This document shows, in pieces, positions 23,128 to 32,000 of a stretch of DNA of 32,000 nucleotides. The notes under the pieces were generated by a model. The model saw nothing but the letters and a program-made list of their open reading frames with translations. It did not search any database and was not told the origin of the DNA. Position 1 is the first letter of the stretch, and each line of letters opens with the position of its first letter. Position numbers and translations under genes: made by a program. The DNA is from Bifidobacterium longum subsp. longum JCM 1217. GTDB lineage: Bacteria > Actinomycetota > Actinomycetes > Actinomycetales > Bifidobacteriaceae. The stretch is taken from positions 1,050,001 through 1,082,000 of the forward strand of contig NC_015067.1 of assembly GCF_000196555.1 (NCBI RefSeq), read 5' to 3'.

Positions 23128-23212
23128 TTCGGTACACGCACCACGCCGACCGGACCGGGCCGATACGCATACCGGGGGTTGTCATCACACGACGAACCCG
23201 GAAGGCGACGAC

Positions 23213-24418
23213 ATGGCGGACACAGGCGGACACGCGACAAGACGAGACAAGGGAGCCGGCGCGATCACGAAACTCGGCAACGGCAGATACCGGGCGTTCG
23301 TCGAACTCTCCCCCAACCCGGCCGACGGCTCCAGACGACGCACCAGCGCCACCGGCCACACCCGGACCGAAGCCCTGAACAACGCCCGCGCCAAAGCCCG
23401 CCGCATCGAGGAGGACATCACCCTGGTGGACGAACCGCCCACCGTGAACGAATGGATGCGACGCTGGATCGACGAGATCGTGACCCCCAGACGCGCACCC
23501 AACACGACCCGGTCATACCGGTTCCGCATCGAACACGACATTACCCCCGTCATCGGCGCCGTACGCATGGACAGGCTCAAACCCGCCCACATACGCCTCG
23601 TCGAACGCCACTGCCTCGAAGGAAACCCCGCGAAAGGCATCCAGGGCAAATCCCCCGCCACGGCCGCCCTGACCCACACCGTCCTGTCCGAGGCATGCAA
23701 GGCCGCCGTCGCCGAAGGCATCATCCGCAGCAACCCCGTGGACGCGGTCGAGAAGAACCGGGTGCCGCCCGCCCCAATCGCCACCCTCACCCCCGGACAG
23801 GCCGCCATGCTCATCCACGCCGAAACCGACCCGCGATGGAGCATCATCTGGCGGCTCCTGTTCATCACCGCACTGCGCGAAGGCGAAGCCCTGGGCGTCA
23901 CGCGCAACGAGATCGTCCGCTCCGACGGACTACCCTGCCTGCTCGTCGAATGGCAGCTCAAGGAATTCGACGGCATCACGGACATGCCCGCCGGCTTCGA
24001 GGCCCGCCGGCTCGACGGCCGCACATGGCTCACCAGACCCAAGACCAGATCCGGACGCCGGCTCATCCCCCTGCCCGCCGACCTCGCCGCCGACCTCGCC
24101 GCCTATACGGCCGACCATCCCGACATCGACCCGGACACCCCATTGTTCCGCTCCGGCCGAGGCAACCCCATCCGCAAGGAAACACTCCAGAACGCATGGC
24201 GAAAAGCGTTGGAACGGGTGGGACTGCCCCGCGTGCGCGTCCACTCCGCACGCCACACGGCGGCCACCGCCATGGCGCGCATCGGCGTCTCCGACCTCGC
24301 CCGCCGTGCCATCATCGGCCACGCCGACATCGGCACCACGGACGCCATCTACACGCACGTGGACGCCGACATGCTCGCCGGCGCCATCGACGGCGTGGAA
24401 CGCCTCATCGAAGGATAG
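23213..24418 (+). CDS. int: tyrosine-type site-specific integrase
   Basis: ATG 23213 follows GGAAGG. The N-terminal arm-binding-like segment is present (ITKLGNGRYRAFVELSP...RRRTSATGHTRTEA). The C-terminal catalytic residues are present (ALREGEAL ... HSARHTAATAM ... IIGHADIGTTDAIYTHV). Confidence 0.9.
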   Translation: MADTGGHATRRDKGAGAITKLGNGRYRAFVELSPNPADGSRRRTSATGHTRTEALNNARAKARRIEEDITLVDEPPTVNEWMRRWIDEIVTPRRAPNTTRSYRFRIEHDITPVIGAVRMDRLKPAHIRLVERHCLEGNPAKGIQGKSPATAALTHTVLSEACKAAVAEGIIRSNPVDAVEKNRVPPAPIATLTPGQAAMLIHAETDPRWSIIWRLLFITALREGEALGVTRNEIVRSDGLPCLLVEWQLKEFDGITDMPAGFEARRLDGRTWLTRPKTRSGRRLIPLPADLAADLAAYTADHPDIDPDTPLFRSGRGNPIRKETLQNAWRKALERVGLPRVRVHSARHTAATAMARIGVSDLARRAIIGHADIGTTDAIYTHVDADMLAGAIDGVERLIEG

Positions 24419-24885: not shown

Positions 24886-24900
24886 GCATGCGTCCCCGGC
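24886..24900 (-). promoter_or_regulatory. recurrent junction motif, class A copy (GCCGGGGACGCATGC on the minus strand)
   Basis: 15-mer identical to 30510-30524. It lies 4 nt after the methyltransferase stop. Its CCGGGGACG part pairs with 24916-24924, forming a 9-bp GC hairpin across the stop codon. Confidence 0.5.
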
Positions 24901-24904
24901 GATG

Positions 24905-26137
24905 TCAGAACAGCACCGGGGACGTCGGCCTCGCCATCCGGCGGGCGATGAGCCGCACGTAATCCGAATCCATCTCCGCCGCCACGCAACGCATGTTTTC
25001 GACCCGGCACGCCTCCAACGTGGCGCCGCTGCCGGCGAACGGCTCCAACACGAGCCCGTCCGGCGGCGTGACCAGACGCACCAGCCAGCGCATCAGCTCC
25101 AACGGTTTCACCGTCGGATGGCGGATCCCGTCCACCGTCGGCCTCTCCCCCGGTCCCGCCTTCGGACAATACCGGAACACGGGATAGAAGCGGGATGCGC
25201 CGCCCATATCGTCATATTCGGCACCCGTATGGGTCATGCCCCAGCCGTCACCGGGTTTCGTGCTTGCGCGTGATTTGCCTTTTCGACTGACGGTGACGCC
25301 GGACTGCCGGTCAAGCTCTCCGGCCATGGTCCGGTCGAACAGCATGTTCGGCGCGAACCGGGCGTCCGCCTTATAGTCGGTGCGATTCGCATTATCCGCG
25401 CCGTATACATGGTTGTCCCGCGGTCCGGAACCGAACCGTCCATGCCGGTTCTTGTTCTTCGCCTCGGTCTCATCCGCCGGGTTGCGGAATGGGACGCGGC
25501 ATGCGTCGATATGCAACGCGCCCGTCCCGTGTCCGAGCAGATTGTGGGCGAGTGTCCCGTCCAACGGCTTGCGTGCGAGGCAGATGGGTTCGTGCGCGGG
25601 CTTCAGCTGGCTGTACCAGCCGGACCATTGTTCGCCCTGTTCGGTGGCGGGCGCATCCCATTCGGATTTCGCCTTGCCGCCGTTCGCGGTGCTGGAACCT
25701 CCGAAGCCGTTGGTGTCCGAATATCCTGCGCCAGCATGACCTTTACCGGCCACATGGGTGCGTTCCGCACCCAATTCCCTGTCCACGAGCAGTCTCGCAT
25801 CCGAACCGTGTGGCATGCCGCTTGCGTACACCCAGTCGATCTGGTCGCGGATTTCGAAGCCCGCGTCCTCGATCGCGCAGGCGAGCCGATGATATGTGCG
25901 GCTCGCGCCGAACGCGGCCACATGCCCGCCCGGCTTCAGGACGCGCAGAATGTCCTTCCACAGGATCACGTCGAATGCGATGCCCGTCGAATCGAAGCCC
26001 AGGTTCATGAAACCGATCTCGTACGGCGGGTCGGTGACGACGGAAGCCACGCTGTTGTCCGGCAGCATGGCGATGAGGTCGCGGCAATCCCCCGGCATCA
26101 GACGGATGCGGCCGTCATCCCATCGCATAAGACTCAT
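24905..26137 (-). CDS. site-specific DNA methyltransferase, N4/N6 family, beta-class motif order
   Basis: 410-aa ORF. The DPPY catalytic motif is near the N-terminus (VVTDPPYEIG). The AdoMet motif is near the C-terminus (HPTVKPLELMRWLVRLVTPPDGLVLEPFAGSGAT). No restriction endonuclease candidate is adjacent. Confidence 0.9.
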   Translation of the reverse strand: MSLMRWDDGRIRLMPGDCRDLIAMLPDNSVASVVTDPPYEIGFMNLGFDSTGIAFDVILWKDILRVLKPGGHVAAFGASRTYHRLACAIEDAGFEIRDQIDWVYASGMPHGSDARLLVDRELGAERTHVAGKGHAGAGYSDTNGFGGSSTANGGKAKSEWDAPATEQGEQWSGWYSQLKPAHEPICLARKPLDGTLAHNLLGHGTGALHIDACRVPFRNPADETEAKNKNRHGRFGSGPRDNHVYGADNANRTDYKADARFAPNMLFDRTMAGELDRQSGVTVSRKGKSRASTKPGDGWGMTHTGAEYDDMGGASRFYPVFRYCPKAGPGERPTVDGIRHPTVKPLELMRWLVRLVTPPDGLVLEPFAGSGATLEACRVENMRCVAAEMDSDYVRLIARRMARPTSPVLF

Positions 26138-26415
26138 GGCTTCACGTATGCGTTCCCGCCATGCAGGCGCGCGCCGGGCATGAGCGCGCGGGGACGCGCA
26201 TCCACGTAGGCGAGCCGACGGCTGTCGCCCGGATAGGTGCGCACGTTGCCGCCCCCATCCCGGGTCTCATAATAGACGACCGTCACCGGCCGGCCGTTCA
26301 GGCTCGCATCATCCCAGCCGACCACCCTGACCGGCATGCTCCCCGGCCCGTAGCCGCCCGACAGGAGAAGCCTGGCGAGCAGCCTCTCCTCCATATCGCG
26401 TCTCGAAACAACCAT
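26134..26415 (-). CDS. hypothetical phage protein (93 aa)
   Basis: Its stop overlaps the methyltransferase ATG (ATGA at 26134-26137), which suggests translational coupling. No family recognised. Confidence 0.55.
   Translation of the reverse strand: MVVSRRDMEERLLARLLLSGGYGPGSMPVRVVGWDDASLNGRPVTVVYYETRDGGGNVRTYPGDSRRLAYVDARPRALMPGARLHGGNAYVKP
26146..26157 (-). promoter_or_regulatory. recurrent junction motif, class B copy (GGGAACGCATAC)
   Basis: Ends 8 nt upstream of the methyltransferase ATG (26137). No canonical SD is present there. Confidence 0.45.
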
Positions 26416-26423
26416 GGGAACCG

Positions 26424-26435
26424 GTATGCGTCACC
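26424..26435 (-). promoter_or_regulatory. recurrent junction motif, class B copy (GGTGACGCATAC)
   Basis: Ends 8 nt upstream of ATG 26415. No canonical SD is present there. Confidence 0.45.
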
Positions 26436-26442
26436 CGACACC

Positions 26443-26488
26443 ATGCAAATCCGGAGGGCCCATGCAATTCTTGTTCCATATGCAATTC
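26443..26488 (-). repeat. three phased direct repeats ATGCAAWTC (plus-strand reading)
   Basis: Copies at 26443-26451, 26462-26470 and 26480-26488, spaced 19 and 18 bp. They lie in the only sizeable AT-richer intergenic gap of the element (26416-26512). Confidence 0.6.
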
Positions 26489-26571
26489 CGAACCCGTTTC
26501 TTAATGTCCGGATCACGTCGCAAGCCGTTGTTCCGGCATGGGAACAGGGCGCGGGCTTCGATGGTCGTATG

Positions 26572-26664
26572 TCATGGCCTGCCGCTGATGTCGAGCGTCG
26601 CCATCGTATCGGCGTCCTCGCCGTCCGTGATATATACTCCGATGATGTATTTTCTTCCGGCCAT
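26572..26664 (-). CDS. possible 30-aa micro-ORF
   Basis: ATG 26664 overlaps the upstream stop as ATGA (MAGRKYIIGVYITDGEDADTMATLDISGRP). Its own stop overlaps another ATG (26575) that opens a 20-codon ORF. Support is positional only. Confidence 0.2.
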   Translation of the reverse strand: MAGRKYIIGVYITDGEDADTMATLDISGRP

Positions 26665-27479
26665 CACGTCCCCCAGCCGACCGGGATGTCCGCGCTTTTC
26701 GCCGTCTCCAACAGGAGCCGGAACAGCTGGATGGTATCTTCCTTGCCTTCCATGGGGTCGAACCGGATGCCGTCATTCTCCGCCATGGCGGTCTCCAACA
26801 TGGAAGCCACCTGACTGTCCGCGCCGACGAACGCGAACCCGGAACCGGCTTCCACCCACTCCCGGCGGCCCACGTCCCACCGCAGGTTCAGATACCGGCC
26901 GAATCCACGATGCATGTCCGCGCCGATCCACACGGAACGGCAGCAGTCCAGGAACTCGGATGACGTGACATCCACGCTCAACCCCGATTCGACCGAACCG
27001 GACACGAACGGGATGCGAGCCGCCAGCATGGCGGCCAACGGTCTTAACCATTTCGCATCACCGCCGGACGCGATACGCTCCCCATCCACGATGGATTCGG
27101 CGATATGTCCGAACGCCTCCACGATGGCCGTGGAATCGTCGGCGCCGGAGGGAATGTCCCCTTCGCCGGTCATGCGGGACACGCCGTCCGGGTCGAACTC
27201 CCAATCGTATTCGACTGGATTGTTACAGGTCTTTGTTACAGGTTTCGTCATTGGTTTCCACGATGATGCGGTGAACCTCCCCGACCTTACGGTCGGGGCT
27301 TCCGTGCCTTCCGCAGAGTTCAATCGGGCAATGGTGAATTCGTAGGCTGTGGTGAGGCCGTCGTAGAAAGTGTATTTTTCCAACAGTTCCTTGTCCGGGG
27401 TTTCGGAGTCTTTGACGGCCTTGTCCCATTGTTGTTCCAACCATGCTATGAGGTCGGATTTAAGTTCTGACTGATTCAT
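26664..27479 (-). CDS. hypothetical phage protein (271 aa)
   Basis: ATG 27479 follows AAGGAA (MNQSELKSDLIAWLEQQWDK...). No family recognised. Confidence 0.65.
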   Translation of the reverse strand: MNQSELKSDLIAWLEQQWDKAVKDSETPDKELLEKYTFYDGLTTAYEFTIARLNSAEGTEAPTVRSGRFTASSWKPMTKPVTKTCNNPVEYDWEFDPDGVSRMTGEGDIPSGADDSTAIVEAFGHIAESIVDGERIASGGDAKWLRPLAAMLAARIPFVSGSVESGLSVDVTSSEFLDCCRSVWIGADMHRGFGRYLNLRWDVGRREWVEAGSGFAFVGADSQVASMLETAMAENDGIRFDPMEGKEDTIQLFRLLLETAKSADIPVGWGT

Positions 27480-27517
27480 GTGGGGGTTCCTTGTTGTGGA
27501 TGCTTTTATGTGTGGAC

Positions 27518-27550
27518 GCAACCAATGTCCATGAGTTCTGTGAGGTTCAA
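27518..27550. repeat. direct repeat, copy A (truncated duplicate of the 5' end of the 67-aa gene)
   Basis: The 29-nt core at 27522-27550 is identical to 27751-27779. Similarity extends to about 45-50 bp with mismatches. On the minus strand it reads TTG AAC CTC ACA GAA CTC ATG GAC ATT GGT TGC GTC CAC ACA TAA. Confidence 0.8.
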
Positions 27551-27578
27551 ATGGTTCAATCCTTGTTTCCTTTCTGCC

Positions 27579-27782
27579 TTACTGCGGAACGTTTTCTAAC
27601 GGCACGAGTTCGGCGCCGGCCTGTTTGGCGTGCCGCTGGCAGACGCCGCCGAAGCTTTCCCCGTCGCCCTCCGGCCATCGACGGATTGCCACAATGGGTT
27701 TGCCGCACGGGTACATCCAACCGTCCGAATCGGTCACGGTATGGGCGCAGCCAATGTCCATGAGTTCTGTGAGGTTCAACAT
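27579..27782 (-). CDS. hypothetical phage protein (67 aa)
   Basis: ATG 27782 follows GGAAAGGA (MLNLTELMDIGCAHTVTDSDGWMYPCGKP...). Confidence 0.55.
   Translation of the reverse strand: MLNLTELMDIGCAHTVTDSDGWMYPCGKPIVAIRRWPEGDGESFGGVCQRHAKQAGAELVPLENVPQ
27747..27779. repeat. direct repeat, copy B (the first 11 codons of the 67-aa gene, including the start codon)
   Basis: See copy A. The two copies are 229 bp apart. Confidence 0.8.
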
Positions 27783-27876
27783 GATTCATCCTTTCCAAAG
27801 TTGAATGCTCTGCCATAGTTTGAATCGCTCGGCTATTGCCTTCGGAGATTGCCCAAACGCATTCTCATCGTCCTCT

Positions 27877-28146
27877 CTACCTTTCCCCGCAATCCCAACG
27901 GTCGTAGCATGCGGGGCATTCGTATTGCGCGTATTCGGGATTCCACTTGGCGTGCTCACGGCATACCAGACGCCAGCAGGCCTCACATATCTCGCCGCAG
28001 TCCGTGCAGTTGACGCGCCCGCAACAGGGGCATTTCCTCGCATGCTCCTCACATAACGGTATGCCGCAACCGCCGCAGTGGTCAGCCACGTCATCCGACT
28101 CGTACGGGCCGTGGATTGAATCTTCGCAGGTTTCGTTCGCGTTCAT
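27877..28146 (-). CDS. cysteine-rich small protein (putative multi-zinc-binding)
   Basis: 89 aa with 15 Cys arranged largely as CxxC pairs, plus C..H (HCGGC, LCEEH, CPCC, CTDC, CEAC, VCREH, CPAC). Confidence 0.6.
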   Translation of the reverse strand: MNANETCEDSIHGPYESDDVADHCGGCGIPLCEEHARKCPCCGRVNCTDCGEICEACWRLVCREHAKWNPEYAQYECPACYDRWDCGER

Positions 28147-28158
28147 GATGGTTCCTTT

Positions 28159-28350
28159 TCATTCCTTGCCTAACAGGTCAAGTCCGGCGCACACCGTCTC
28201 CCATACGGTCTTGCCGTCGAATGCGATGAGCATGCCGGATATGCAGTATTCGCTGGCGTGCGGCGCGGGCTGTCCGCAGTCCACGCCTTCCTTGCCCAGC
28301 CTGTCCAATAGGTCGCGGACGGATTGCAGCGTCTTCTCGATGTTCAACAT
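28159..28350 (-). CDS. hypothetical phage protein (63 aa)
   Basis: ATG 28350 follows AAGGAG. It lies 3 nt downstream of the preceding gene's stop. Confidence 0.5.
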   Translation of the reverse strand: MLNIEKTLQSVRDLLDRLGKEGVDCGQPAPHASEYCISGMLIAFDGKTVWETVCAGLDLLGKE

Positions 28351-28353
28351 GGT

Positions 28354-28899
28354 TCACTCCTTGTCCAGTCGGCGCACGCTGGCCAGCATGCGCGACGCGG
28401 CCTGACGGCGCGTCTCATACGGGGTGCCGAGTTCCTCGCCCAGCAGCCACCCCTCGAACACGGACACCGGGTCATGTCGGCCGGAGTATTTGTTGTTGCA
28501 GGATTCGCACACATGCATGTAGTGTTCGGCCATGTCTTCCACATCCTTCGCCTCCTGTTCGTCGCCAAGCGTGTTCCGGCACCATTCGGCGGTCCTGTCG
28601 AACTTGTCTTTCAACCGCATGAGACGGTCGGTGCGCGGCATGGGCGAAGCCAGCAGGCGTGCCAGTTCGTCCAATGCCCGTTCCTCGCCCATGTCGGCTG
28701 TATCGAGGACGGTGTTATCCTCGACAAGCTCGTACTGCGTGCGGACGATGCTGATGGTGTCGCTGTCGGGAAGGTTGACGGTGACCTCGTATCCCGCTTG
28801 AGGGTCGAATGCGGTGATGCGTCCGAACTGGTGGTCGTTGTACACATGCCAGTCCGGCAGTATGCGGGTGACGATGCTGAGGATGTCGCGTGTTTTCAT
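28354..28899 (-). CDS. hypothetical phage protein (181 aa)
   Basis: Internal Met of track ORF 28354..28959 (MKTRDILSIVTRILPDWHVYNDHQF...). The SD is weak. No family recognised. Confidence 0.55.
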   Translation of the reverse strand: MKTRDILSIVTRILPDWHVYNDHQFGRITAFDPQAGYEVTVNLPDSDTISIVRTQYELVEDNTVLDTADMGEERALDELARLLASPMPRTDRLMRLKDKFDRTAEWCRNTLGDEQEAKDVEDMAEHYMHVCESCNNKYSGRHDPVSVFEGWLLGEELGTPYETRRQAASRMLASVRRLDKE

Positions 28900-28966
28900 T
28901 CCGTCAGTTCCAGTTCTTCGGCGCGACGACGATCCAGCCGCGATGCCTGTCGGCCTCACGCCTCTC

Positions 28967-29068
28967 CTATTCGTCCGTTAGCCATTGCTCATGCGTTTCC
29001 GCTTCCTGCCTGTCATCGAACTGCTTGCCATCCGAAGTGGTGTATGCGATGCTTGTTTCGACACTCAT
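28967..29068 (-). CDS. possible 33-aa micro-ORF
   Basis: ATG 29068 overlaps the upstream stop as ATGA (MSVETSIAYTTSDGKQFDDRQEAETHEQWLTDE). Below the track cut-off. Confidence 0.25.
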   Translation of the reverse strand: MSVETSIAYTTSDGKQFDDRQEAETHEQWLTDE

Positions 29069-29610
29069 GATTCCTCCAACTGGTATCCGATGTGGCGCAG
29101 CGCGTCCGTGATGGTTTCGCCCGGTTCGCCTTCAAGCGGTCGCCCGCCATACTTGTCGTATATCCGCCATTCGCCGGGTTCGGACTGGTAGGCGTATACG
29201 GTGCCCGCCGGCTTCCCGTCCGGCGCCGTCAGTTCGATCGGCTTCGATTCGCCCCGCTCCGACCGCCATCGTGCGATGCCGTGCTTGCGTTCCATGAGCG
29301 TTAGGCTCGCGCCGTCCAGTCCGGCTTCCAGCAGGCTCATATATTGGCTGTCATCGTTTTCGCGGATATGCCAGTCATCGCCGTAGTCGTCCTCCATGCC
29401 GATCAGGAGCAGGGGCAGGCCGGTGCGACCGCGCCCCTCGTCGCGCACGATTTCGAACGGACGGTCCAACTCGTTGAACGCGGTCTGCCAGACGATCCAA
29501 CCCTTGTCGCTGACGCGCGGCGAATCCGGGCCATACCCGTCGTCCTGCCGGTCACCATAATGGAATCTGTCGAGCAATTGGTGTTCGATTTTTTCGCCAA
29601 GCGGCTTCAT
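29065..29610 (-). CDS. hypothetical phage protein (181 aa)
   Basis: ATG 29610 follows AAAGGAA (MKPLGEKIEHQLLDRFHYGDRQDDGYG...). The track start (TTG 29655) is rejected. Confidence 0.6.
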   Translation of the reverse strand: MKPLGEKIEHQLLDRFHYGDRQDDGYGPDSPRVSDKGWIVWQTAFNELDRPFEIVRDEGRGRTGLPLLLIGMEDDYGDDWHIRENDDSQYMSLLEAGLDGASLTLMERKHGIARWRSERGESKPIELTAPDGKPAGTVYAYQSEPGEWRIYDKYGGRPLEGEPGETITDALRHIGYQLEES

Positions 29611-29845
29611 GGTCAGGTTCCTTTCTTTCGAAAAGCGTGGTTGTCGCATCCTCAAGAAATGCGGTGAACAGATCGTAGGGTTCGGCCTGATTGGGATTCA
29701 GATACCAGTCCATAGGTTTATAGCCCAGTTTCATGCACGGGAGTTTCGTGCCGATATACCGGGTGACCCGGATATGCCGGAATACCCATCGTATGATGTC
29801 GATTCCGAGCCCATATTGTTCCGCATATTCCTTATACGACTTCAC
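29552..29845 (-). CDS. hypothetical phage protein (97 aa)
   Basis: GTG 29845 lies 6 nt after GGAAAGGG (VKSYKEYAEQYGLGIDIIRWVF...). Its 3' end overlaps the next gene by 59 nt in another frame. Confidence 0.45.
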   Translation of the reverse strand: MKSYKEYAEQYGLGIDIIRWVFRHIRVTRYIGTKLPCMKLGYKPMDWYLNPNQAEPYDLFTAFLEDATTTLFERKEPDHEAAWRKNRTPIARQIPLW

Positions 29846-29865
29846 AATCGACCCTTTCCTCCGCT

Positions 29866-30195
29866 TCACTGGTGCGCCTTCACGTATTCGGGTCCGTGGT
29901 AGTGCGATCGGCATGCGTATCGTTCGGTGACCGGGGTTTCGAGAATCCGGTCCACATCCAACGTCACGGTCTCCCGATCCGTTCGGGCGAGGTATTCACG
30001 CAGCCAGTCGCCAGCGTTGAAACTGTCCGCACACCATGCCGGATCGTCCGTCAGCTCTTGGATGCGCCGGACGCCGTTCGGGTCGTCGAGGAGCCCGGGG
30101 TTCCAGCCTGCATGCTCGCAGACCACGTCGATCAGCGGGTCAAGCCGGCTGATGGCGCGTGTTCTGCCGGGCGTGACGATCACCGTGCTCCTCAT
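29866..30195 (-). CDS. hypothetical phage protein (109 aa)
   Basis: Track ORF, same strand as its neighbours, starting 3 nt after the upstream stop. Confidence 0.55.
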   Translation of the reverse strand: MRSTVIVTPGRTRAISRLDPLIDVVCEHAGWNPGLLDDPNGVRRIQELTDDPAWCADSFNAGDWLREYLARTDRETVTLDVDRILETPVTERYACRSHYHGPEYVKAHQ

Positions 30196-30198
30196 CGT

Positions 30199-30477
30199 TC
30201 AGTCCTTCTTCTCTTCGAGATCCTTGAACATGTCCCATCCACCGCGTCCGATATCGGCGTCTTTGCTGCCGATTACGACGATGCCGCCGCCTTTCTTGAG
30301 CCGCCGCGTGCAGACTGGGTCCGTGTTCTCCTTGCCGTAAATGTCGAAGCTCTTGAGCGGGATCGCCCGCAAACCGTATTCGTAATCGTCGTTGATGCGG
30401 TACACGGGCAGGTCGCCGTACCGGTCGCGGATGGCTTCGAGCTTCTCGATGAGTTCGGTGATGGTCAACGTGTCCAT
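30199..30477 (-). CDS. hypothetical phage protein (92 aa)
   Basis: Track ORF (MDTLTITELIEKLEAIRDRYGDLPVY...) with a balanced charged composition. Confidence 0.6.
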   Translation of the reverse strand: MDTLTITELIEKLEAIRDRYGDLPVYRINDDYEYGLRAIPLKSFDIYGKENTDPVCTRRLKKGGGIVVIGSKDADIGRGGWDMFKDLEEKKD

Positions 30478-30509
30478 GGTCGGATGCCTTTCTTACGTCC
30501 GCATCCCAC

Positions 30510-30524
30510 GCATGCGTCCCCGGC
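30510..30524 (-). promoter_or_regulatory. recurrent junction motif, class A copy (GCCGGGGACGCATGC)
   Basis: Identical 15-mer to 24886-24900. It abuts the stop codon at 30525-30527 and overlaps the perfect palindrome ACGCATGCGT (30508-30517). Confidence 0.5.
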
Positions 30525-31013
30525 TCACAGGCCCTTCGCCTTGAGGATCCCGTCCGCCTCTCTGGTGAAGTCATGCCGGCGGCGCAGCCGTCCCGCCTCG
30601 TAGCGCGCATCACGCGCCGTCGGGTCGATGTCGCGCGCGAATCCGGCCATCACATCCGGGTCGATGCGGTGCGCGTATCGGAGCGCGATATACGGGTCGG
30701 CCGTCCGGACGAGAGCGTGTTCGCCGCCCGGATGCTTCTCGCACGCGATCAGCCATGTGCCCGGATCGTCGCACCAGCCGATGAGGCGTTCCAACTGGCC
30801 GGGCGTGCACTCCTGGCTGGCGATCAGCTGGTAGGCGACGTCCGGCGACCATGACGGGTTCGACTCCTCCATGAGCCGGACGAGCATGCCGATCTGTTCG
30901 GGACGCAGTCTCGCGCTCGCGGCCAGATCCGTCATGACGCCGTCCCCGTGCTCGAACAGGGCGAGCAGCTGGGGTCCGTCCAGGGTGGCTATGAAATCGT
31001 CGAATCGTTTCAT
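30525..31013 (-). CDS. hypothetical protein downstream of the HipA-like kinase (162 aa)
   Basis: Internal Met of track ORF 30525..31073 (MKRFDDFIATLDGPQLLALFEHGDG...). Helical-repeat-like composition. It starts 37 nt after the kinase stop. Confidence 0.55.
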   Translation of the reverse strand: MKRFDDFIATLDGPQLLALFEHGDGVMTDLAASARLRPEQIGMLVRLMEESNPSWSPDVAYQLIASQECTPGQLERLIGWCDDPGTWLIACEKHPGGEHALVRTADPYIALRYAHRIDPDVMAGFARDIDPTARDARYEAGRLRRRHDFTREADGILKAKGL

Positions 31014-31020
31014 GCCCTGG

Positions 31021-31032
31021 GTATGCGTCCCC
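31021..31032 (-). promoter_or_regulatory. recurrent junction motif, class B copy (GGGGACGCATAC)
   Basis: Ends 7 nt upstream of ATG 31013, in the 37-nt gap after the kinase stop. Confidence 0.45.
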
Positions 31033-31050: not shown

Positions 31051-32000
31051 TCAGCGGCTACGCCAGTATCCACTGACCGGATATCCGCTTCGGATATGAG
31101 GGCTCACCCAGACGCCGCCCCCGCCGAAGGATGCCGTATTCGCCTTTGGCTTCGGCATCCTTCCGTGCAGTGGCTGGATGTTCTCGTTTGCCTTCGAAAC
31201 CGCCTTACGCATGGATTCCCTCAGCGAATCGGGCAAACCGGCCGATGCCTCATCCAGATGGTCGAGAACGGCTCCCGCCATGGTCCGGGCGATATGCGCC
31301 ACACGCTCCCCGTCCAAACCGGCCTCCTCCGCGAAGGCCTCCCAGTCGGATGGGGTGAGCAGTTCCGCGAATTCGACTCCGTTGATGGGCATCGCCATCT
31401 CCTGATCCACATGAGGCCATATTCTGGTGACCGTCATGTCGTACATCGGCGCGAAACGGAACCCGTTTTCGGCAAGAACAATCGAATAGTTCTTGCCATG
31501 GGAGTCCGAATCGCCCGATGAGACGTTGAAGGCAAGCCGGCGAACCCACTCGTATCCGGTTTCATCGCTTGCATCGAAATGATGCAGGAAACGGACGCAG
31601 CTTGCGGCGTCGATTTCATACTTGGATTCGGGATCCATGCCCATGGCCTGCGCTAGATCCTCGCAATGGATTCGTCTCACGTTGTTTCCATCCACGATGC
31701 GGTCGAAACGTCGGGTGATGAAGGCCTCCGTCCCATTCGCGGTGAGAACGCCATGCTCGGATACCGGCAATCCGCAAAGAGTCCCGAGCGTCAGGGTGGC
31801 ATCCTCCACCCTGTGACTGCCGGGGCAATCCCTCATTTCAGGTTTGATGATATGGGTGGAGGGGATGGACGCGTTGGGCCAGAGCCAGACACCGGCACGT
31901 CGGGCGAGCGTGAACTTGGGCTGGCCTCCGGCGATGGAGAAACGGCATTTCGGCGTATCCCGCTCATAGAACTCATCCTCATCATCCCGTGCGAACCAGT
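31051..32000 (-). CDS. HipA-family serine/threonine kinase (type II toxin-like), N-terminus beyond the window
   Basis: The frame is open from 31998 down to the stop at 31051. The track's Met at 31836 is internal. Motifs: RFSIAGGQPKF (Gly-rich loop), PSTHIIKPE, FITRRFDR, RIHCEDLAQAMG, the catalytic region FNVSSGDSDSHGKNYS, and PMYD. Confidence 0.85.
   Translation of the reverse strand, partial: WFARDDEDEFYERDTPKCRFSIAGGQPKFTLARRAGVWLWPNASIPSTHIIKPEMRDCPGSHRVEDATLTLGTLCGLPVSEHGVLTANGTEAFITRRFDRIVDGNNVRRIHCEDLAQAMGMDPESKYEIDAASCVRFLHHFDASDETGYEWVRRLAFNVSSGDSDSHGKNYSIVLAENGFRFAPMYDMTVTRIWPHVDQEMAMPINGVEFAELLTPSDWEAFAEEAGLDGERVAHIARTMAGAVLDHLDEASAGLPDSLRESMRKAVSKANENIQPLHGRMPKPKANTASFGGGGVWVSPHIRSGYPVSGYWRSR

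Follow-up and report, generated by a model that had tools for sequence, protein, structure and literature searches.

A direction-locked GACGCAT word at gene junctions of a Bifidobacterium integrative island, possibly a compact promoter-like element

What does a short word do for a mobile element when it recurs at one gene junction after another? This question is raised by a 32,000-nucleotide (nt) stretch of Bifidobacterium longum subsp. longum JCM 1217 (NC_015067.1, positions 1,050,001 to 1,082,000), here called the window, which ends in an integrase gene and a leftward gene array belonging to a mobile element. The initial annotation had described five copies of an asymmetric word at gene boundaries of this array, all in the direction of transcription. 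A pattern scan with GGNNACGCATRC returned exactly these five matches in the 32-kb window (S2 to S6 in Table 1), all on the minus strand, compared with 0.27 expected by chance, and five or more matches were found in none of 100 shuffles. Because this pattern had been defined after the fact, an unbiased k-mer test was added. In the 60 nt upstream of the 16 module genes, motif-derived words were the most widely shared k-mers, ahead of Shine-Dalgarno words, and GGGACGCAT was present in 4 of the 16 upstream regions, a number reached by 0 of 500 dinucleotide shuffles. Across 11,476 overlapping bases, locus L001 (CP137052.1) is identical to the reverse complement of the window, and it carries a sixth copy past the window end. 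The repetition of the motif is real, is not due to chance and reaches well beyond the window.

Table 1. Motif copies, motif-like sequences and landmark genes of the array. Positions are those of the window unless a locus is named; aa, amino acids.
Feature	Position	Strand	Sequence and context
S2	31021..31032	-	GGGGACGCATAC; ends 7 nt before ATG 31013 (162-aa gene); no Shine-Dalgarno sequence
S3	30510..30524	-	GCCGGGGACGCATGC; 0 nt after the stop of the 162-aa gene, 32 nt before ATG 30477; Shine-Dalgarno sequence AAGAAAGG downstream of the copy
S4	26424..26435	-	GGTGACGCATAC; ends 8 nt before ATG 26415; no Shine-Dalgarno sequence; alternative ATG 26394 is 29 nt from the copy end
S5	26146..26157	-	GGGAACGCATAC; inside the final codons of the 93-aa gene and 8 nt before ATG 26137, the start of the N6/N4 DNA methylase gene (stop/start overlap ATGA); no Shine-Dalgarno sequence
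S6	24886..24900	-	GCCGGGGACGCATGC; 4 nt after the methylase stop, 44 nt before ATG 24841; Shine-Dalgarno sequence GAGGAG downstream of the copy
Sixth copy	L001 8284, ~720 nt past the window end		tcGGGACGCATGC; 26 nt upstream of the ATG of the hipB-like gene
Weak candidate copy	23164-23172	+	TACGCATAC; same direction as the integrase gene, whose ATG (23213) is 41 nt downstream; followed by Shine-Dalgarno sequence GGAAGG
Three degenerate units	26443..26489	-	GGAWTTGCAT; 17-19 nt apart, leading into S4
g163 gene	30525..31013	-	162-aa acidic all-alpha repeat protein; motif on both flanks
Orphan N6/N4 DNA methyltransferase gene	24905..26137	-	bracketed by S5 and S6
HipA kinase gene	31051-32000	-	cut by the window end; hipB and the rest of hipA lie beyond (L001 1-9963)
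Tyrosine integrase gene	23213..24418	+	convergent with the minus-strand gene array; marks the element end

The initial annotation had divided the copies into two classes, namely an identical 15-mer placed shortly after a stop codon (S3 and S6) and three copies ending just before an ATG that lacks a Shine-Dalgarno sequence (S2, S4 and S5). On the minus strand, the two 15-mers, their distances from the neighbouring stop and start codons and the three short distances are as it had given them. A table of the 80 nt upstream of each gene revealed a GGAGG or GAAAGG Shine-Dalgarno sequence before almost every gene of the module, but not before those starting at 31013, 26415 and 26137. The division holds by spacing but not by sequence (..ATGC versus ..ATAC). 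The A/G position toggles between orthologous copies, with S3 being ATGC in L004 and ATAC in L005, S4 being ATAC in L001 and ATGC in L011, and S6 being ATGC in L011 and ATAC in L013. The earlier sequence classes are therefore one motif. S2 and its spacing are retained across three different upstream contexts in relatives, and S5 is conserved in relatives except for L011 and L013, which carry GGGAGCGCATAC. The GGAWTTGCAT units before S4 look like degenerate copies of the motif; the unit closest to S4 is retained in the relatives inspected, one variant being TTTTGCAT. The sequence upstream of the integrase gene is suggestive only and could be a weak seventh copy or a chance match, as an 8-mer match of such a kind is expected about once per 20 kb.

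Related loci were fetched through homologues of the 162-aa protein, g163. The window-type loci among them amounted to 465 kb, in which 121 strong matches (weight-matrix score of at least 15 bits) were on the gene strand and 2 were on the opposite strand. In each of the seven loci with a gene table, all strong matches were located at most 60 nt upstream of a start codon. This zone makes up 7-11% of the sequence, and for L001, where 6 of 6 matches were inside it, the binomial p is 1e-7. Four distant arrays (L040, L041, L045 and L046) carry homologues of the 162-aa protein that are only 31-39% identical, and across these and a window-type locus the GACGCAT core was found in 36 upstream regions in sense orientation and in 3 in antisense orientation. 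The direction lock, the junction position and the strand bias, all of which the initial annotation had suggested examining beyond the window, hold family-wide. Relatives also have new paralogous motif sites, S7 to S12, before other genes. Each locus has about six strong copies, clustered in the integrase-proximal 8 kb, and the other 10-12 kb read per locus has at most one or two more.

Some relatives differ from the window around these sites. In L028 (13534-13600), a perfect hairpin, ccggccccg(at)10cggggc, comes after S6 and has no counterpart in the window. Variant islands (L004 9075-9200) have an Xre-type 268-aa helix-turn-helix (HTH) protein and a divergent 155-aa gene in place of hipBA.

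Alignment of 18 contexts, and then of 49 non-redundant contexts, revealed a sharply bounded, asymmetric consensus of 11-12 nt, sGG[G/T][G/A]ACGCAT[A/G][C/t]. In the 49 sites, the information content did not rise above background between -45 and -5 or past +9, and neither a -35-like nor any other partner element was found in either set. The motif string was found in the searchable literature only within primers. To our knowledge, the boxes recognised by LexA, ClgR, HipB or sigma-54 do not fit the motif in sequence or spacing, a restriction site of the type IIG enzyme or a Chi-like site would not be confined to junctions, and the palindromic structure of integron attC sites is absent from the motif.

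The distance of the motif from the gene it precedes was counted between the T of GCAT and the start codon in 53 non-redundant contexts, with Shine-Dalgarno sequences called by an automatic test. The contexts were in two groups. In 10 contexts the distance was 9-11 nt, corresponding to a motif end 7-9 nt before the ATG, and the Shine-Dalgarno sequence was absent in 9 of them. In 41 contexts the distance was 27-61 nt and a Shine-Dalgarno sequence was present in 36. Two further contexts were at 19 and 24 nt, one being an alternative start call for the methylase and the other an uncertain start. The spacing of 9-10 nt was constant in orthologues despite changes in the spacer itself (ccagggc, ccggggc, ccggcacc). 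The same two groups were observed in the distant arrays, where four copies in L040 and one copy in L041 were 9-10 nt from an ATG. At two further sites, L041 833 and L045 5067, the annotated start is the ATG inside GACGCATG, and these starts are probably mis-called.

The close copies are reminiscent of the start-associated sequences (SAS) of cluster K mycobacteriophages, as they end 7-8 nt before a start codon that is always ATG and precede non-structural genes in a single orientation (PMC3203893). By this analogy the motif would be a translation-initiation word that replaces or supplements the Shine-Dalgarno sequence. The initial annotation had put forward a Shine-Dalgarno substitute or translational operator, which could fit the three close copies of the window but not the majority: at about four fifths of the copies, the start codon is 27-61 nt away and the gene has an ordinary Shine-Dalgarno sequence of its own. 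In addition, the AGGAG core present in SAS is not in the consensus sGGRACGCATR, and no 17-bp inverted-repeat extension of the extended SAS (ESAS) type was found among the 49 sites between -45 and -5. We therefore consider an SAS-like function very unlikely.

The core word was maintained in the distant arrays. GACGCAT was located upstream of 9 of 34 genes in L040, 9 of 30 in L041 and 10 of 31 in L045. In each of these three arrays it was the top 7-mer, exceeded the largest value of 300 shuffles and was commoner upstream of genes than Shine-Dalgarno words. In L046 it was upstream of 3 of 14 genes, where it was not the top 7-mer and was inside the shuffle range. The distant arrays have genes on both strands, and each junctional minus-strand copy heads a minus-strand gene. 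Outward-facing, back-to-back pairs were found in divergent gaps of L040 (6616/6623) and L041 (17915/17923), with the upstream edges of the cores 6 and 7 nt apart, respectively. A similar pair, 9 nt apart, is present in the window-type locus L032 (977/979) but may sit within a coding frame. The orientation of the motif tracks the transcribed gene and divergent pairs occupy divergent gaps, as would be expected of a promoter. In the Bifidobacterium phages Bbif-1 and PMBT6, which are of similar G+C content, GACGCAT was upstream of 0 of 121 genes and the top upstream words were Shine-Dalgarno words. The 23-kb host part of the window contained four GACGCAT words, of which 0 headed a plausible gene; one of them preceded, by 9 nt, an ATG that is internal to and in frame with a 376-aa open reading frame.

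A short, orientation-locked, asymmetric word at gene junctions may also be a dispersed operator or a stoperator-like roadblock, where a monomeric regulator encoded by the element binds and stops or controls RNA polymerase. The motif is as compact as a single protein-binding site, with no second element, and the three GGAWTTGCAT units before S4 resemble an operator array. The initial annotation had compared the copies with the stoperators of cluster A mycobacteriophages. The likeness holds in anatomy (PMC9283540, PMC6550527), since both words are asymmetric, junctional and direction-locked. It does not hold in copy number and spread, only about six copies being present within 8 kb, in the host element, which is not demonstrably a phage of the L5 type (see below), or in the repressor: no repressor-type protein was matched by Pfam or PHROGs among 27 proteins of the window and L001, where no direct comparison with L5 gp71 was made. 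An Xre-type HTH protein is present only in the variant islands of the L004 type, and the divergent control region that its gene shares with the 155-aa gene carries CCGGATAT/ATATCCGG repeats and not the motif. A roadblock does not account for the two-group spacing or for its link with the Shine-Dalgarno sequence, and the back-to-back pairs are placed where transcription must begin, not stop. Their variable separation of 6 to 9 nt argues against an operator for a dimer. Given the two-group spacing, the divergent pairs and the absence from the two phages, an element that defines starts fits better than an elongation roadblock, and we consider a regulator site possible but unlikely.

Repeats of another kind were observed in L034 (120-430) and at the end of L039, in an A+T-rich non-coding stretch packed with GTATGCAT/ATGCATAC in both orientations. 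In L034 this stretch includes palindromes of the form GTATGCATCC-NN-GGATGCATAC and adjoins the end of an insertion sequence and a truncated copy of the 162-aa gene. Its half-site ATGCATAC is one base off the ACGCATAC of the motif. A role as master operator was set aside, as the stretch is confined to L034 and the end of the short contig L039.

A scan of the module for sigma-70 promoters (TTGACA, a 16-18 nt spacer and TANNNT) found 3 sites compared with 2.9 expected, none of them at junctions, and a scan of the module for intrinsic terminators was also at chance level, with nothing at junctions. Since sigma-70-type promoters are not present above chance, another signal is needed. The orientation of the motif on both strands, the outward-facing pairs, the compact word, the spacing that leaves either a leader or none, and the lack of sigma-70-like promoters together lead us to favour, tentatively, the reading of GGGACGCATR as a compact promoter-like element that has no -35 partner and is recognised by an element-specific factor. 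Such an element would fix where the transcription units of this mobile-element family begin. The word is unlike the housekeeping -10 and is absent from the host genes examined and from ordinary phages, which implies a specific factor; the reader would be specific to the element rather than being the host housekeeping sigma. From the spacing, the start site would be ~9-11 nt downstream of the T of GCAT. An ATG at that distance would give a leaderless mRNA that needs no Shine-Dalgarno sequence, as may be the case for the 162-aa, 93-aa and methylase genes. An ATG at least 27 nt downstream would give a leader with an ordinary Shine-Dalgarno sequence, as may be the case for hipB, the 92-aa gene that heads a 12-gene block and the 115-aa gene. 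Leaderless starts make up ~15% of the mapped start sites in Bifidobacterium pseudolongum (PMC4782308).

The obvious candidate for a trans-acting factor, by inference only, is g163, since no array lacks it and motif copies stand on both sides of its gene in the window. It is the only family found in all five motif-bearing array types, a few others being common to two to four of them. The protein is confidently predicted to be a 12-helix alpha-solenoid (AlphaFold, pLDDT 94, pTM 0.83). Its homologues are from sources named Bifidobacterium breve and B. longum subsp. infantis. Only 17 relatives were found when 1.84 billion representative clustered proteins were searched by profile, and a profile search of representative genome contigs found no match. 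An assignment as TAL-effector-like was rejected, as the PDB profile E of 5.8e-8 arises by adding up 12 near-identical repeat matches that individually score 3-7 bits at E >60.

A number of points weigh against the promoter-like reading. The motif has no TANNNT in register, as the -11 A and the -7 T are missing at the right distance, and a -35 partner was found in none of the 49 independent sites. It resembles no sigma factor consensus that we know of, and among the genes of the elements none was recognised as coding for a sigma factor or an RNA polymerase. The missing Shine-Dalgarno sequence at the close copies could be partly trivial, with the motif simply filling that space. S5 is inside a coding region, and its gene could be translated by coupling through the ATGA overlap. 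Both the transcription start at the motif and the identity of the reading factor are what we infer, the start site being derived from spacing alone. As for g163, the loci were retrieved by means of this protein, which in part explains why it is found in all of them. In Pfam it had only weak HTH_32 matches, with no TAL match and no significant family match, and no significant structural neighbour was found among PDB or viral models (two AlphaFold models, three Foldseek searches). The family is also acidic, with isoelectric points of 4.3-5.6 (about 5 for the 162-aa protein); we conjecture that this acidity would suit an adaptor that binds polymerase better than a direct reader of nucleic acid.

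The word may instead act in RNA. GACGCAU would then be the site of an RNA-binding protein, possibly g163, or a processing site, and would control translation or stability; in the processing variant, polycistronic RNA would be trimmed into leaderless or short-leader mRNAs. Strict sense-strand orientation would be automatic, every copy is in a possible 5' untranslated region, and the close copies are at roughly the Shine-Dalgarno distance from the ATG. In Foldseek, g163 came closest to PUF RNA-binding repeat domains (E 0.29, probability 0.69), although these matches are not significant and the protein is acidic. RNA folding of six sites gave no common structure, with z-scores of about 0 in five of the six, and Rfam searched at E up to 1 gave no match. 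The only significant hairpin, at S2, was discarded because it depends on the HipA-side flank, which is wholly different in the other S2 contexts. Pairs that are 6-9 nt apart would force the start of each transcript into the leader of the other, and copies 27-61 nt upstream of genes with a normal Shine-Dalgarno sequence are poorly placed for translational control. Collectively, these results make an RNA-level element quite unlikely in our view.

The sequences that flank the motif are mosaic. The 30 nt on either side of each copy were clustered, which revealed that S3 has one upstream context, the 3' end of the 162-aa gene, and three unrelated downstream contexts, while S2 has three unrelated upstream contexts and one downstream context, the 5' end of the same gene. 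For S4, four to five contexts were found upstream and one downstream; S6 has two on each side, and S7 and S8 have alternative contexts both upstream and downstream. The linkers between the stop codon and S3 (GCC, T, AAC) are freely combined with the downstream contexts, which means that exchange has occurred within the 12-15 nt of the motif. Duplicated segments with ends at the motif are present in L015 and L034, and several single genes are bracketed by motif copies.

Such joints, with alternative modules connected by the same motif at S2, S3, S4, S6, S7 and S8, are what would be left by the exchange of modules through short homology or site-specific recombination, and the motif may be a scar or joint with no role in expression. 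A passive joint, however, would not hold a fixed distance of 9-11 nt to the ATG in independent sites. It would neither track the presence or absence of a Shine-Dalgarno sequence nor flip with gene direction, and it would not remain the top upstream word in arrays whose shared protein has diverged so far. An inverted-repeat core of the tyrosine-recombinase type was not found in the motif in any of the 49 sites. We consider a scar without a role in expression highly improbable. The promoter-like reading can accommodate the joints: since unrelated modules have only this short word in common, the motif would also have become the site at which modules are joined and exchanged. Taken further, GACGCAT might be the recognition word of a self-contained transcription system encoded by a loose family of integrative defence islands of Bifidobacterium, in which the g163 family, as a new specificity factor, reads the -35-less promoter or redirects host RNA polymerase to it, leaderless and leadered transcripts are both made, and promoters double as module joints. 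We regard this larger proposal as speculative and, on balance, unlikely.

The element itself is described as an integrative island rich in defence and toxin-antitoxin genes that is not demonstrably a phage. Past the window end, the array includes an MmeI-like type IIG restriction-modification gene, a TacA/acetyltransferase (GNAT) toxin pair and an AbiLi-like AAA_21 pair. Pfam matches in the window module were to the integrase, the N6/N4 methylase and HipA only, and PHROGs gave nothing beyond one weak match for the proteins of the window and L001. No phage structural genes were found in 20 kb. Neither the DNA, by megablast, nor the 162-aa protein, by tblastn, had a match in 50,697 phage records or 72,556 plasmids. 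Two relatives are entered in IMG/VR as predicted proviruses, but their readable parts hold IS605/TnpB genes and proteins with no assigned function. The lack of structural genes and phage matches, together with the cargo of defence and toxin-antitoxin genes, is the reason for calling the element an island and not an L5-type phage. The initial annotation had spoken of an L5-type element; the arrangement shared with L5 is limited to an integrase convergent with a leftward array.

Within the window part of the array, a 55-nt direct repeat of 84% identity is present at 27510-27564 and 27739-27793. A non-coding remnant 229 nt downstream repeats the 5' end and ribosome-binding region of a 67-aa gene (27579-27782, minus strand). 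In the relative L002 the 67-aa gene is present twice in full, which points to duplication and deletion at this position. An 89-aa protein (27877-28146, minus strand) has many CxxC pairs and the look of a zinc ribbon, with no family match.

B. longum and B. breve are key infant-gut commensals, and these islands, with their genes for restriction-modification, abortive infection and toxin-antitoxin systems, are present in many strains; contigs with one particular homologue of the 162-aa protein numbered 247. If the promoter-like reading is correct, an element-specific signal would explain how the defence cargo and dozens of small unknown genes come to be expressed. A rule for annotation would follow, in which a motif 9-11 nt before an ATG marks the true and probably leaderless start, and the genus, for which few genetic tools exist, would gain orthogonal promoter parts. 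The joints place module exchange exactly at a 12-nt word that would be regulatory, and the spacing signature makes the proposed mechanism of transcription start directly testable.

How does the motif compare with known systems? The stoperators of cluster A mycobacteriophages are likewise short asymmetric words, of 13 bp rather than 11-12 nt, dispersed in short intergenic gaps of an actinobacterial mobile element in one orientation to transcription. In contrast to the handful of copies here, tens of them are spread genome-wide, including the structural operon, and they are bound by a monomeric HTH-plus-stirrup repressor and block elongation, whereas the motif described here has a fixed relation to start codons and forms back-to-back pairs. 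SAS and ESAS are asymmetric words of the 13-bp class that are found in one orientation just upstream of the ATG of non-structural genes and are conserved before unrelated genes, as is the motif at its close copies. SAS are located 3-7 bp upstream of starts, with ATG preferred, and their own function is unknown (PMC3203893). They differ in their AGGAG core and in the upstream 17-bp imperfect inverted repeat that about half of them have, the motif having neither, and in that most motif copies are 27-61 nt from the start.

Promoters of actinobacterial leaderless genes share with the close copies an ATG at a fixed short distance downstream and no Shine-Dalgarno sequence, and Bifidobacterium uses leaderless mRNAs (PMC4782308). 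Those promoters usually have TANNNT at -12 to -7, whereas the G+C-rich GACGCAT would be centred near -13 and is absent from the host genes examined. A further comparison, by analogy only, is with promoters of the T4 type. The late promoters of T4, TATAAATA, are read by gp55 and have no -35 element, and the promoter-early stem-loop cassettes of T4 sit at module joints. As in T4, a single short word without a -35 would lie upstream of the start site before many small genes, would be read by a factor that the element encodes, as proposed here, and would fall where modules are exchanged. The two are neither similar in sequence nor homologous, no gp55, sigma or polymerase homologue was found in the elements, T4 is a lytic phage and not an integrated island, and the start sites here are putative. 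In our view, the closest functional analogy to the motif is nevertheless a phage-type -35-less promoter that doubles as a module joint. The motif adds a third kind to the dispersed, direction-locked short motifs of actinobacterial mobile elements, beside stoperators and SAS.

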